DNA from: Candidatus Levyibacteriota bacterium
GTDB lineage: Bacteria > Patescibacteriota > Microgenomatia > Levybacterales > UBA12049
DNA length: 64,000 nt
NCBI GenBank assembly: GCA_038205015.1
Contig: JBBRCK010000001.1
Span: 51,862-115,861, forward strand
Reading direction: 5' to 3'
The notes below the pieces were generated by a model, which worked only from the letters and a program-made list of their open reading frames with translations, did not search any database and was not told the origin of the DNA. Below are positions 3,178-32,348 of this stretch, in pieces. Numbering within the stretch: the first letter of the stretch is position 1; each line of letters begins with the position of its first letter. The translations under genes and the position numbers were made by a program.

Positions 3178-3404
3178 TAGGTGGGCCTACCCTCTATAAT
3201 AACAGAACCTACTGGGACTGAAATAACTCTTTGTCTTGGTTCACCTTCAATTTTGACAATTTGTGTTTTTAATATAGCAAATCCTGCATTATATTTTGCA
3301 TACTGAAGTGTTTCATCATGTAGATTGGGATCGTAAACAAGAGTTTCTGATTCCGCCATTACAATTCTGGTAACATTAGGTTCTCCTTCGGTATTTCTTT
3401 TCAT
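3174..3404 (-). CDS. Hypothetical small protein
   Basis: 76-aa ORF only; no family recognised. Confidence 0.3.
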   Translation of the reverse strand: MKRNTEGEPNVTRIVMAESETLVYDPNLHDETLQYAKYNAGFAILKTQIVKIEGEPRQRVISVPVGSVIIEGRPTY

Positions 3405-3736
3405 TGTTTAGGGATTTTATGCATTATAAACCTATCTGTCAAGTTGACAAAAATATATGCTTTGATATACTTATTTTGTTCTTTGGTATTAAGAGGAAGT
3501 TGGTAAGATTTTCCTCTACAAATTCACTAGACTAGAGGTACTCCAAAGTTTTTTGGAGGACAGGGCGAATTATCACGTTTCCAAAAGAAGCAGATTTAGC
3601 CCACCTAATTAAAGTTTAGGGGAAACATCAACTCCGCTCGGTACCAAGGACGAATTTATTCTTATTATTTATTCTTCGCCCCACAAGGGCTTGTTCTTCG
3701 TACTCCATATTTGATAAAATTAAAGCTAGTACTCAA

Positions 3737-3808
3737 GCCGACTTAGCTCAGTGGTAGAGCAACACTTTTGTAAAGTGAAGGTCCTCGGTCCAAATCCGAG
3801 AGTCGGCT
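3737..3808 (+). tRNA. tRNA-Thr (anticodon UGU)
   Basis: cloverleaf by hand: acceptor GCCGACU/AGUCGGC, anticodon loop UUUGUAA; CC (not full CCA) follows the discriminator. Confidence 0.8.
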
Positions 3809-3964
3809 CCGTACTTAAGAAATAGAAATATTATAATAAGAATGTGCTTAATTTGTCCTAATTGTCATTCTCTAAGCCCAAATTTTAGAAATTTAAATAA
3901 AGGAAAAGGTAAGATCTTGGAGAATTAAGTATTTAAAATCAAAAATTTGATAAAATAGATTTAA

Positions 3965-4049
3965 GCTGAGTTGGCGGAGTAGTCAATCGCACCTCGCTGT
4001 AGACGAGGCGCCCGGAAGGGCTACGGGAGTGCAAATCTCTCACTCAGCA
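3965..4049 (+). tRNA. tRNA-Tyr (anticodon GUA) with long variable arm
   Basis: acceptor GCUGAGU/ACUCAGC, anticodon stem CCUCG/CGAGG loop CUGUAGA, variable stem-loop GCCC-GGAA-GGGC, T-loop UGCAAAU. Confidence 0.8.
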
Positions 4050-4169
4050 CAATTAATACTCGATTTATACTTTACTAAGTTCTATACTAGAACTAGCTCT
4101 ATTTATTGTATGAATTAATATCCTATTTTAAAAGACGAGCTGGAAACACTCTATTCTTCCGGTAGATCA

Positions 4170-4721
4170 ATGTCTGAAATTGCCGTTAGTCTGAAATGCT
4201 CTCTCCATAAAGTAGTTTATTGGATGATAAAGTATAATCTTAAAAGACGAAACAGAAGCGAAGCTTTGTATCTTAAACTAAACCCAAATGGTGATCCTTT
4301 TAATATTAAAGAGGAAATAAATTCAGAAGAAACATTTCTTTATGGTTTGGGTTTGGGAATTTATTGGGGAGAGGGAGAAAGAGTTTCAAAAGGTAAAGTT
4401 AGAGTAGCTAATACTGACCCAAATCTTCTAAGAATATTCCGGAAGTTTCTAATTATATATTGCCAGGTTGATCTTTCCAGGATCCATTATTACCTAATTT
4501 GTTTTAATGATAGTAATCCTGAATTGGTAAAAGCATTTTGGGCAAAAGAACTCAAGATATCGAAAGAAAAATTTGGTAAAATAGTACAGATTGCGTCTCA
4601 GGGGAAAGGAAGTTATAGAAAAAAATCGCAATTCGGAAGTTGTACTATAGAGGTCTCAAACATAAAGTTAAAACATTGGTTAATGCAGGAATTGCATAAA
4701 TTAAATACATTGCCTAGGTAG
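4170..4721 (+). CDS. LAGLIDADG-like putative homing endonuclease with N-terminal HTH-like region
   Basis: 183 aa; motif FLYGLGLGIYWGEGER resembles single LAGLIDADG block followed by hydrophobic core; last 10 nt overlap tRNA-Thr(GGU); occupies the slot where tRNA-Gly sits in thrU-tyrU-glyT-thrT arrays. Confidence 0.45.
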   Translation: MSEIAVSLKCSLHKVVYWMIKYNLKRRNRSEALYLKLNPNGDPFNIKEEINSEETFLYGLGLGIYWGEGERVSKGKVRVANTDPNLLRIFRKFLIIYCQVDLSRIHYYLICFNDSNPELVKAFWAKELKISKEKFGKIVQIASQGKGSYRKKSQFGSCTIEVSNIKLKHWLMQELHKLNTLPR

Positions 4722-4783
4722 TTCAGTGGCAGAACGCCAACTTGGTAAGTTGGAAGTCGAGGGTTCGATTCCCTCTCTAGGCT
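4712..4783 (+). tRNA. tRNA-Thr (anticodon GGU)
   Basis: acceptor GCCUAGG/UCUAGGC (one G-U), anticodon stem CCAAC/GUUGG loop UUGGUAA, T-loop UUCGAUU. Confidence 0.8.
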
Positions 4784-4819
4784 CATTTTTGATATAATAG
4801 GCAGGGAGGAGGAAAAATT

Positions 4820-4996
4820 ATGGCAAAAAAAGGAGATCACAGAGCAATATTGGGATTAGTTTGCACTGTTTGTAAAAACAGGAATTATGTTACTACCAGA
4901 AATAAGCTTAATACCTTAGAAAAGTTAGCGCTTAAAAAGTTTTGTAAATTGTGCAGAAAAAAGACCGAACATAAAGAAGTAGATAAGCTTAAATAA
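4820..4996 (+). CDS. rpmG: 50S ribosomal protein L33
   Basis: 58 aa not in ORF track (below the 60-aa cut-off); MAKKGDHRAILGLVCTVCKNRNYVTTRNKLNTLEKLALKKFCKLCRKKTEHKEVDKLK; GGAGGA SD 9 nt upstream. Confidence 0.8.
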   Translation: MAKKGDHRAILGLVCTVCKNRNYVTTRNKLNTLEKLALKKFCKLCRKKTEHKEVDKLK

Positions 4997-5048: not shown

Positions 5049-5120
5049 AGGGACGTGGTGAAATGGTTATCACAGCAGTCTCCAAAACTGCTTTTCTCAG
5101 TTCGAGTCTGAGCGTCCCTG
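5049..5120 (+). tRNA. tRNA-Trp (anticodon CCA)
   Basis: acceptor AGGGACG/CGUCCCU, D-stem GUGA/UCAC, anticodon stem GCAGU/ACUGC loop CUCCAAA, T-loop UUCGAGU; CCA not encoded. Confidence 0.8.
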
Positions 5121-5125
5121 CAAGT

Positions 5126-27591: not shown

Positions 27592-28208
27592 GATTTAGCT
27601 ATGTAAACGTAATTGCCAAAGACTTTGGGAATTGAACCCGCTTTGGCGGGATTTTTCGTTTTTACAGGCGTTTGCACTTTAAAAAATCGCGTAAATACAG
27701 CACTTTGAATGAAAAGGATTAAACTTTTTGTGACCAAGCTTTGCTTGGTAATCAGAAAGTGGTAGGAATTTTGTCAGGTTATTCCATTAAAGAAATCTGA
27801 CACGATAAAGTTTATCATTTGATGAACTTTTTCAATTTTTTTGAGAATTTGATCCTGGTTCAGGATAAACGCTGGCGGCGTGCCTTAGGCATGCAAGTCA
27901 AAGGGGTTCCGCAAGGAACAACTGGCAGACGGGTGAGTAACGCGTAGGAATCTACCCCTAGGAGGACCATAGCCGTCCGAAAGGATGGGTAATAGTTCAT
28001 AGTCAATTTATTGTAAAGGAGTTAACGCTCCGCCAAGGGATGAGCCTGCGTCCTATCAGCTTGTTGGTGAGGTAAAAGCTTACCAAGGCGATGACGGGTA
28101 GCTGGACTGAGAGGTCGATCAGCCACAACTGCACTGAGATACGGGCAGTACATCTACGGATGGCAGCAACCAGGAATATTGCGCAATGGACGAAAGTCTG
28201 ACGCAGCG

Positions 28209-28253
<45 letters not shown>

Positions 28254-28657
28254 ATAGTCCTTTCACGGACTATAGAATAAGCACCTACTAACTACGTGCC
28301 AGAAGTCTCGGTAATACGTAGGGTGCAAGCGTTATCCGGATTTATTGGGCGTAAAGTGTGCGTAGGCTCATCGAAAAGTCATACCTTAAATACTAAGGCT
28401 TACCCTTGGGAGTGGGTATGATACTTTCGATGTTGAGGATTGTCAGGGGTACTGGAACAGTTAGTGTAGCAGTGAAATGCGTTGATATTAACTGGAACAC
28501 CGATGGCGAAGGCAGGTACCTGGGATTTTCCTGACGCTGAGGCACGAAAGCTAGGGGAGCGAAACAGATTAGATACCTGTGTAGTCCTAGCCGTAAACGA
28601 TGTCTGCTAGCTTTGTCCGACTTGTCGGACGAGGCGCAAGCTAACGCGTTAAGCAGA

Positions 28658-28717
<60 letters not shown>

Positions 28718-28825
28718 CCGGTGGAGCGTGTGGTTCAATTCGAGACAAAACGAAAAACCTCACCAGGGTTTGACATGATACCGTACATTTTTCTAGAAAT
28801 AGAGAGAAATCCGCAAGGATGGTAC

Positions 28826-28869
<44 letters not shown>

Positions 28870-29255
28870 CCCTTAAGTGGGGAAACGAGCGCAACCCGCG
28901 TCTAATGTTGAATAATCATTAGAGACGGTCCCTAGTTTTCTAGGGAAGGAAGGAGCGGAAGACGTCAAGTCAGCACGGCCCTTATACCCTGGGCTACACA
29001 CACACTACAATGGCGAAAAACAACGGGCTGCAAGCCGGCAACGGCAAGCGAATCCCTTAAATTTCGCCTCAGTTCAGATTGGAGTCTGCAACCTGACTCC
29101 ATGAAGTCGGAATCGGTAGTAATCGCAGATCAGCATGCTGCGGTGAATACGTTCTCGGGTCTTGTACACACCGCCCGTCAAGGCAGCAAAGTCGGTAGCT
29201 ATCGAACATCCCCTTTGGGGATGGAGATAGAGATTGGCGATGAAGCTTAAGTCGT

Positions 29256-29978
29256 ATAAATGTTGCGACCTATGTTGGCAACAGCATAGAAAACCTCAAC
29301 TGTATCGGTGAACTCCTACTTGAGTTTATAATTATTTTTTAAATAGTTTATACTTAAGGGACAATACCGAGGGAAGTCGTCTTGATTTAATTAAGATTGA
29401 CCCCGTAGAGACTACACGTTGACGCCTTGAAAAATGACAAAACCTTATTTACTTGGTGCATTACATGATGGTACTGAAAGAAAATTTACTTATCGTATCG
29501 GTCAGAAAGATAAAGAGTATATAGAATTTCTTTTAAAAGGAATTCAATCTCTTGGTCAAAAAGCCTGGATGTATAAAGAAGGGAAAACTCGACAATTTTA
29601 CATTGTTGAATTCTCAAAATTTTTTTTGAAAGATGCAAATATAGCATCGATTCAAGATAAGATTGATTACATCAGAGGATATTTCGATGCGGAAGGAGGA
29701 ATCTCCAGAGATTCTAAGATTCGTTATTATATTTATTTTGCTCAGAAAAATCTGAAAGATTTACAAGAGTTAAAAGGATATTTAACGGAACTTGGAATAG
29801 CCTGCGGTATTATTCATAATCCAAGTAAAAAGAGAGATCCAGATTATTGGCGTTTTTTTATAAGTGTAAAATCTTATAGAGAATTTGCGGAAAGAATTGG
29901 ATCTTGGCACCCAGTAAAAAGTCATTTTTTAAGGATGAAGATATAGTCCATGCCCCTAGTAATAGGTGGATTTACATG
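29256..29978 (+). mobile_element. Group-I-like intron in 16S rRNA, inserted in AAGTCGT|AACAAGG near the 3' end, carrying a homing endonuclease ORF
   Basis: exon sequence is contiguous only if 29256..29978 is removed; 5' splice site follows U, intron ends in G. Confidence 0.7.
29434..29946 (+). CDS. LAGLIDADG homing endonuclease (double-motif) encoded inside the 16S intron
   Basis: two LAGLIDADG blocks: LLGALHDGT and IRGYFDAEGG; 170 aa. Confidence 0.85.
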   Translation: MTKPYLLGALHDGTERKFTYRIGQKDKEYIEFLLKGIQSLGQKAWMYKEGKTRQFYIVEFSKFFLKDANIASIQDKIDYIRGYFDAEGGISRDSKIRYYIYFAQKNLKDLQELKGYLTELGIACGIIHNPSKKRDPDYWRFFISVKSYREFAERIGSWHPVKSHFLRMKI

Positions 29979-32272: not shown

Positions 32273-32348
32273 GGCGCGGTGGTGAAGCGGCTAACACAGC
32301 TGTTTGCAAAACAGTCATTCACCGGTTCGAGTCCGGTTCGCGCCTCCA
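32273..32348 (+). tRNA. tRNA-Cys (anticodon GCA), CCA encoded
   Basis: acceptor GGCGCGG/UCGCGCC, anticodon stem GCUGU/ACAGU loop UUGCAAA, T-loop UUCGAGU. Confidence 0.8.

Follow-up and report, generated by a model that had tools for sequence, protein, structure and literature searches.

The window that we analysed is a 64,000-nucleotide (nt) stretch of contig JBBRCK010000001.1 from a Candidatus Levyibacteriota bacterium, and it carries, within a cluster of transfer RNA (tRNA) genes, an open reading frame (ORF) whose 3' end runs into the gene for tRNA-Thr(GGU). The segment that holds this ORF, positions 4051-4711 in the numbering of the window, which is used throughout, is probably a free-standing homing-endonuclease-type cassette set flush against the 5' end of that tRNA gene, with a product that we infer would cleave DNA. 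The ORF belongs to a protein family with a common domain architecture and predicted fold, occupies an insertion site that is filled in some relatives and empty in others, persists as a remnant at one further locus, and has relatives in the tRNA arrays of phage-like contigs. The locus bears the signature of a homing endonuclease because an optional gene at an exact site, promoter-like signals, decayed copies, a domain that keeps its glutamate next to a helix-turn-helix (HTH), and phage relatives all come together in it. The element is a divergent variant of the free-standing homing-endonuclease-type genes, drawn from a large undescribed family associated with tRNA genes.

The initial annotation, made from the window sequence, had read the region as tRNA-Thr(UGU), tRNA-Tyr(GUA), a gap filled by an ORF of 183 amino acids (aa), tRNA-Thr(GGU), rpmG and tRNA-Trp. 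This gene order was confirmed by tRNA calls across the whole window, using ARAGORN and Rfam at its gathering threshold, and by Pfam. The features are as follows:

3737..3810, forward strand: tRNA-Thr(UGU), the first gene of the array (ARAGORN; Rfam tRNA, 66.8 bits).
3965..4050, forward strand: tRNA-Tyr(GUA), intact (ARAGORN and Rfam).
4051..4711, forward strand: inserted segment of 661 nt, made up of a short upstream spacer and the body of the ORF (alignments against ORF-less alleles).
4110..4118, forward strand: ancestral start ATG AAT, then a premature TAA at codon 3 of 203 (sequence; comparison with the frame of homologues; Logan assembly).
4119..4283, forward strand: N-terminal DNA-binding domain of HTH type with three helices, spanning residues ~1-55 in the extended frame (NCBIfam, PHROG, Pfam in members of the family, AlphaFold 2).
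4323..4718, forward strand: single LAGLIDADG-like domain, in which a long helix that ends in GLGLGIYWGEG (4344-4376, Glu85) leads into a beta/alpha core containing an extra helix.
4170..4721, forward strand: the ORF as listed and as held in public records, 183 aa with an ATG start (list of ORFs; identical protein P0001).
4712..4784, forward strand: tRNA-Thr(GGU), uninterrupted (ARAGORN; Rfam, 69.2 bits).
4820..4996, forward strand: rpmG, encoding L33 (Pfam Ribosomal_L33 on an identical Logan contig; the flank is homologous in the ORF-less locus L174 and also in L133).
5049..5121, forward strand: tRNA-Trp(CCA), the end of the conserved neighbourhood (ARAGORN and Rfam).

The overlap of the ORF with the 5' end of tRNA-Thr(GGU) proved exact, since the stop codon TAG at 4719-4721 coincides with nt 8-10 of the tRNA and the two genes share exactly 10 nt. 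The annotated 183-aa frame at 4170..4721 likewise exists, but it is not the whole gene. The frame is open from 4119, homologues align to 17 residues upstream of the listed ATG, and the ancestral gene at 4110-4721 has 203 codons, the modal length of the family. Its 5' end in the window reads ATG AAT TAA TAT CCT ATT TTA (MN*YPIL), compared with MNSSPIL in the nearest homologue, and the stop at codon 3 (4116-4118) rests on a base that is identical in an independent Logan assembly. The listed ATG at 4170 corresponds to the invariant internal Met18, and because it starts there, the 183-aa product would miss the first helix of the HTH. The window could thus yield either this shortened protein, initiated at Met18 and without HTH helix 1, or a product initiated at a rare ATT codon. 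In addition, the window protein departs from the family at two near-invariant positions, R88 and S174, and these deviations together with the stop at codon 3 fit a window copy that has entered a phase of decay.

When one genome was scanned for each GTDB species, 124 carriers of the gene were identified, from which 80 loci were kept, all in Patescibacteria. The Microgenomates lineages are closest to the window protein, with 50-71% identity, followed by Parcubacteria, Saccharibacteria and Peribacteria with 40-48%. The 3' end of the ORF abuts tRNA-Thr(GGU) in 78 of the 80 loci, making this tRNA the constant partner of the gene family, and tRNA-Tyr, tRNA-Thr(UGU) and tRNA-Trp shift or flip around the ORF/tRNA-Thr(GGU) pair. 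At 57 loci ARAGORN placed the start of tRNA-Thr(GGU) anywhere from 38 nt inside to 48 nt past the ORF stop; the 10-nt overlap of the window is the most frequent arrangement, and other registers include -15, -21 and +1 to +48, a variation which argues for abutment rather than a single inherited fusion. At the 21 further loci the tRNA-Thr(GGU) gene is present but split, and was missed by ARAGORN. By eye, a promoter-like box, TTGAC-N17-TAT(A/C)ATAGAA, could be placed 10-20 nt before the ATG in L007, L009, L011, L016 and L006, a position that points to a leader that is short or missing. The ATG in L028 and L029 lies 0-1 nt past tRNA-Tyr, such that the ORF takes up precisely the distance from one tRNA to the other. 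We also observed, in L191, a distant member of ~285 aa (28% identity) between tRNA-Tyr and tRNA-Thr(GGU), which has two tandem HTH modules before its LAGLIDADG-like domain and is separated from tRNA-Thr(GGU) by another gene.

To see the site without reference to the ORF, metagenome contigs were scanned for tRNA-Thr(GGU) genes of this type by means of a pattern blind to the ORF, and loci were counted as having the context typical of the candidate phyla radiation (CPR) when they had tRNA-Tyr upstream and/or tRNA-Trp downstream. Of such loci, 10 carried the ORF and 35 did not. In the ORF-less alleles (L174, L136, L126 and others) only 1-20 nt separate tRNA-Tyr from tRNA-Thr(GGU), as at the junction in L174, which reads ...CCCCGGCACCA g GCCTAGG.... 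The window and L174 become homologous again at nt 1 of tRNA-Thr, and homology between L146, with the ORF, and L194, without it, begins 3 nt before the tRNA. One locus that had at first been scored as ORF-less, L179, turned out to hold a heavily deleted remnant of the gene in a 270-nt gap between tRNA-Tyr and tRNA-Thr(GGU), spread over frames +0 and +2 (hmmsearch E values of 1.8e-8 and 2.3e-5).

Other sequences were also seen in or near this spacer. In L120 and L150, which have no LAGLIDADG-like gene, it contains a small GIY-YIG-like ORF of ~80-90 aa; the site may act as a hot spot at which various kinds of nuclease gene settle. Separately, the ORF-less loci L091, L102, L117 and L160 have the 5' fragment of a second tRNA, GCCGATGTAGCTCAGTTGGTA..., 50-140 nt upstream of the intact tRNA-Thr(GGU). 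This fragment resembles exon 1 of the intron-bearing allele described below, is interrupted in L091 and L102 by the palindrome CCTGCCTGCCGGCAGGCAGG, and in all four loci may be the scar of past recombination at the site.

At the protein level, a search of 5.8 billion proteins returned 507 homologues at E ≤ 0.01, the best non-self match having an E value of 7e-95. The ORF is therefore not a chance frame, an explanation that could be ruled out on these numbers. The homologues measure about 200-205 aa, nearly all falling within 196-215 aa, and are unnamed, from Patescibacteria and without a Pfam domain; a further search, seeded with a Saccharibacteria member, added a second branch of 320 homologues. 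The HTH-like N-terminus that the initial annotation had described was borne out by several methods. In the window protein it gave weak matches only, to NCBIfam HTH_Cbp1 and PHROG over residues 5-49, and Pfam families of HTH type were matched in 59 of 142 members. Moreover, an AlphaFold 2 model made from an alignment of 142 sequences (mean predicted local distance difference test score, pLDDT, 94.2; predicted template modelling score, pTM, 0.85) has N-terminal helices at residues 5-13, 18-24, 29-38 and 46-54.

Two blocks in the family are near-invariant, GLGxGIYWGEG and FGKIxxIxxQGKGxYxxKSxxGV. The first of these, which in the extended frame is GLGLGIYWGEG (residues 76-86), has invariant glycines at G80, G84 and G86, with E85 present in at least 90% of the 142 sequences. 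It thereby matches the motif helix of the LAGLIDADG superfamily, which is rich in small residues and closes on a conserved acidic residue with a Gly behind it. In the AlphaFold 2 model the helix that carries this motif (69-85) terminates at Glu85, and an additional helix and strand are found between beta3 and beta4. The core fold of the LAGLIDADG superfamily is alpha-beta-beta-alpha-beta-beta-alpha; its enzymes perform Mg2+-dependent, site-specific double-strand cleavage that leaves 4-nt 3' overhangs, and those with a single motif are homodimeric. The comparison table has entries for the TliVMA intein endonuclease (9.9), I-DmoI (7.7), E-DreI (7.5), WhiA (7.4), I-Tsp061I (7.1), PI-PfuI (6.8), I-CeuI (6.2), I-Vdi141I (6.0) and I-CreI (5.0). 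The Pfam family LAGLIDADG_3 was matched weakly in 5 of the 142 members (E ≥ 0.013), and in one relative from a viral contig the match was borderline (E value 7.7e-4; score 20.1 bits, cutoff 22.5). In our reading, the protein would consist of an HTH fused to one LAGLIDADG-like domain that has diverged very far and lies outside the reach of LAGLIDADG sequence profiles, and this putative assignment rests on the predicted structure together with the borderline Pfam matches in relatives.

The family has a far larger hinterland. With a profile of the C-terminal domain we recovered 3685 representative clusters at E ≤ 1e-3 and 1442 at E ≤ 1e-10, and only 38 at E ≤ 1e-30, which form the core linked to tRNA-Thr. 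When 60 distant members of this superfamily were compared with Pfam, they matched HTH families only. In IMG/VR we found 18 relatives (L202-L219), proteins of ~220 aa with 24-32% identity and the same combination of an HTH with an (I/L)YWGEG domain, on contigs of 15-497 kilobases. Almost all of these lie within tRNA arrays, where they adjoin many different tRNAs, and in 8 of the 18 the 3' end of the ORF abuts or overlaps a tRNA, which can be on either strand. This placement implies that association with tRNA genes at the level of DNA is a property of the whole superfamily. A tblastn search of 50,697 annotated phage genomes with the window protein and one of the viral-contig relatives gave no match.

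The split tRNA-Thr(GGU) genes deserve separate treatment. In 21 of the 80 loci (L030, L032, L033, L035, L036, L039, L045, L048, L053, L055, L056, L059, L061, L063, L064, L067, L070, L073, L078, L079 and L080; for example L039 4601-4886) the gene is split after anticodon nt 36 by an insertion of 185-241 nt with no ORF inside. An alignment of 18 of these insertions folds into P1, P2, P4-P6, P7 (GACUG/CAGUC), P8 and P9, with an invariant U.G at the 5' splice site, a G at the end of the intron and compensatory changes in 29 of 50 predicted pairs. By eye, a TCCC/GGG pairing is placed correctly for the P3 pseudoknot. Judged by these features of its sequence, the insertion is evidently a group I intron, and Rfam gave no match on the split loci even at E ≤ 1. 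Introns at position 36/37 of tRNA-Thr(GGU) have been reported in 3 of 95 complete Patescibacteria genomes, where they were detected by tFind and missed by the Rfam model RF00028 (Nakagawa et al. 2026, PMC13011429). The introns of that study and those of our 21 loci are the same, RF00028 misses them in both sets, and the tRNA-Thr of the window is free of them. Patescibacteria tRNA introns were described there as mostly lacking endonuclease genes and were inferred to move little, and the study is silent on the gene directly upstream (PMC13011429).

Relatives that bear the intron have the ORF ahead of exon 1, at a distance of 36 nt from the intron site. With the ORF outside the intron there, and an intron-free tRNA in the window, we rejected the idea of an intron-encoded ORF; the suggestion in the initial annotation that the ORF is a relic of an intron does not fit the window either. 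Its other suggestion, that of a free-standing gene, was upheld, since the ORF lies outside any intron next to an uninterrupted tRNA-Thr(GGU), and the comparative data fit the life style of a homing endonuclease. In the tree of the ORF, intron-bearing and intron-free loci are interleaved outside Microgenomates, closely related ORFs of Saccharibacteria type being found both with and without the intron; the Microgenomates clade that includes the window is entirely intron-free, as are 57 of the 78 carriers. Divergence of the intron and of the ORF are weakly correlated (Mantel r 0.34, p 0.016). As a separate observation, in L063 (4531-4810) the acceptor sequence of exon 2, CTGAGGC, cannot pair with that of exon 1, GCCGATG, because of three mismatches, and this tRNA-Thr may be a broken or chimeric intron-bearing gene.

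For the cassette itself, we infer nuclease activity, a target site, homodimerisation and a homing cycle that might run as follows. The N-terminal HTH would anchor the protein on DNA, and for both strands to be cut its single LAGLIDADG-like domain would have to form a homodimer. By analogy with homing endonucleases generally, the enzyme would cut gene-less alleles at or beside the tRNA-Tyr/tRNA-Thr(GGU) junction, and repair from a gene-bearing copy would insert the cassette. The cassette would end where the essential tRNA begins, and the ORF would find its stop within that tRNA, in which U8-A9-G10 reads TAG; a stop would lie there because the cassette reaches the first selection-protected nt and because U8-R9-G10 often gives a stop codon. 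Once the gene had become fixed in a lineage, no target would be left and it would decay, and the TAA at codon 3 may be the first sign of this in the window copy.

Several results weigh against this reading. With respect to the insertion, no pair of loci with and without the ORF was close enough for both boundaries to be seen, the nearest being ~70% identical in the flanks. One identical tRNA-Thr sequence occurs with the ORF in L146 and without it in L194 and L128, so the recognition target cannot lie wholly inside the tRNA; the recognition site must include sequence that is displaced by the insertion, and ORF-less alleles show no conservation in their upstream spacers. The protein, furthermore, shows strong conservation between CPR lineages of very deep divergence, with a tree that is roughly taxonomic, and purifying selection on a host function would also give such conservation. 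Finally, there is the distance of the protein from known LAGLIDADG enzymes. The window protein had 0 matches in Pfam at E ≤ 10, a search of PDB sequences with the family profile returned HTH matches only and no LAGLIDADG protein, and there was none among the top 50 Foldseek matches of the AlphaFold 2 model in PDB. When the profile of the C-terminal domain was compared by hhalign with the family of the genuine LAGLIDADG_3 protein encoded in the window, at 29434-29946, YWGEG was laid over FDAEGG in the expected register and the E value, 0.14, was not significant; nor was significance reached against that protein alone, or against an I-CreI sequence. These figures agree with the statement of the initial annotation that the two window proteins are unrelated in sequence. 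Its LAGLIDADG-like block, on the other hand, survives only in part: the motif helix ending in Glu, the predicted structure and the borderline Pfam matches in relatives speak for it, but a significant match to a LAGLIDADG profile, the test that the initial annotation had set for itself, was not obtained with the window protein.

The conservation of the protein would be well accounted for if it were a domesticated DNA-binding protein that uses a LAGLIDADG scaffold without nuclease function, a regulator or nucleoid factor near the promoter region of tRNA-Thr(GGU)/rpmG. The precedent is WhiA, a transcription factor with two degenerate LAGLIDADG domains that lack the catalytic acids, and a C-terminal HTH. 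We consider such a role unlikely. The gene is present in a minority of loci with the same context (10 of 45), a patchiness unlike the distribution of WhiA, and it is found deleted to a remnant in L179 and interrupted by a nonsense codon in the window. It has one domain and an N-terminal HTH, where WhiA has two domains and a C-terminal one; at least 90% of its members keep the acidic residue that is absent from WhiA; and relatives spread across phage tRNA arrays, beside various tRNAs, suit a mobile gene better.

A role in RNA processing is less probable still. LAGLIDADG proteins can double as maturases, and the protein could be a splicing helper for the group I intron in tRNA-Thr(GGU), or a factor for 5' maturation of the tRNA that it overlaps. 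In its favour are the overlap itself, the intron that splits the neighbouring tRNA-Thr at 36/37 in 21 of 80 loci and is also known from the three published genomes, and probable co-transcription at some loci (L028, L029). However, there is no intron to splice in 57 of the 78 carriers, among them the window and all of the Microgenomates clade, the group I core of the intron is complete and covarying, with no obvious need of a helper, and the tRNA that abuts the phage relatives is often on the opposite strand, which argues for a relation at the level of DNA rather than RNA. Least probable of all, and in our view very improbable, is that a homing endonuclease or intron relic has replaced glyT, as the initial annotation had proposed in placing the ORF in a tRNA-Gly slot. 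The order Thr(UGU)-Tyr-gap-Thr(GGU) does resemble the E. coli operon, which runs thrU-tyrU-glyT-thrT, with the gap in about the right place, and the gap indeed lacks a recognisable tRNA-Gly: neither the gene nor a remnant of it was found in 4051-4711 by ARAGORN and Rfam at the gathering threshold over the whole window, or by Rfam at E ≤ 1 on 3380-4200. In ORF-less relatives, however, tRNA-Tyr is followed directly by tRNA-Thr(GGU), and the synteny comparison that the initial annotation had called for turned up a tRNA-Gly between the two in 0 of 200 loci, so that displacement of glyT is not supported.

Building on the preferred reading of the segment as a free-standing homing-endonuclease-type cassette, we tentatively raise a further possibility, which we hold with well under even confidence: that the ORF family supplies in trans the endonuclease for the endonuclease-less introns of tRNA-Thr(GGU), as in collaborative homing, and that the superfamily combining an HTH with LYWGEG is a tRNA-gene-targeting LAGLIDADG branch shared by CPR bacteria and large phages. 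The enzyme would cut intron-less or ORF-less tRNA-Thr(GGU), and repair would co-convert the ORF together with exon 1 (36 nt) and the intron. In line with this, the ORF lies only 36 nt from the intron site, and the intron is ~8 times commoner in ORF carriers (21 of 80) than in the published set (3 of 95), a comparison that is not phylogenetically corrected. The exons of intron-bearing genes are also unusually uniform, ACTCC-AU-GGU|AA-GGAGU, as co-conversion predicts. Against it, P1/P10 pairing could constrain the exons instead, and the intron-bearing genes come here from a sample of ORF carriers rather than an unbiased one.

Among known systems, the closest functional precedent is T4 SegB, a homing endonuclease gene within the tRNA gene cluster of phage T4 that is inherited preferentially along with the neighbouring tRNA genes (PMC2330249). 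Like the element described here, it is a free-standing nuclease gene that is lodged between tRNA genes and present or absent among relatives (PMC2330249). SegB, however, is a GIY-YIG enzyme of a phage, whereas the window ORF encodes a LAGLIDADG-like domain with an HTH, resides on a bacterial chromosome and is tied to tRNA-Thr(GGU). Collaborative or trans homing is exemplified by F-CphI of cyanophages, beside the psbA intron, and by mobE of T4, with the nrdB intron (PMC6083498, PMC2790892). In these cases, too, a free-standing endonuclease gene adjoins one that is interrupted by a group I intron lacking a functional endonuclease; the enzymes, by contrast, are Endo VII-like or HNH, the window has no intron, and cleavage at the intron site is hypothetical here. 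The single-motif LAGLIDADG enzymes I-CreI, I-CeuI, I-MsoI and I-Vdi141I, and the LAGLIDADG_3 family, show no significant profile match with the window protein, which differs from such enzymes in the extra helix and strand between beta3 and beta4, in the fused N-terminal HTH, and in being encoded by a free-standing gene rather than within an intron or intein.

Were the protein an active nuclease, it would represent a new and very divergent LAGLIDADG-type branch that current domain libraries miss, with long natural target sites in tRNA genes, of interest both for the biology of mobile DNA and for meganuclease engineering. The compact tRNA operons of CPR bacteria are invaded at one exact point, the 5' edge of tRNA-Thr(GGU), and the same protein architecture recurs in the tRNA arrays of large uncultivated phages. 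The family also offers a candidate route for the movement of the endonuclease-less tRNA-Thr introns of Patescibacteria, a question that was left open by PMC13011429, and collaborative homing, if true, would overturn the recent inference that these introns are essentially immobile. For annotation, the recurrent ‘hypothetical protein overlapping a tRNA’ finds an explanation, and the gene model is corrected to 203 codons with a stop at codon 3.

Elsewhere in the window, the ~300 nt that precede tRNA-Thr(UGU) (3420-3736) are non-coding and 68-80% conserved in L001, L011, L014, L111 and L133, contain a strong promoter-like site at 3444-3471 and have no Rfam match at E ≤ 1; they might represent a leader or an RNA not yet described. 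The initial annotation had named secE-nusG-rplK as nearby; directly past tRNA-Trp, Pfam on the identical Logan contig instead identified genes for an M50 peptidase, L28, ICMT, a formyltransferase and a deformylase. No 23S ribosomal RNA match was reported by Rfam in the window, and the next tRNAs, tRNA-Cys and tRNA-Ile, come only at 32273 and 32553. The Rfam match to 16S ribosomal RNA is contiguous, covering model positions 1-1533 in the 1465 nt at 27837-29301, and the LAGLIDADG_3 ORF at 29434-29946 (170 aa; Pfam E value 4.8e-15) begins 133 nt past the end of that match and is not visibly inside it.

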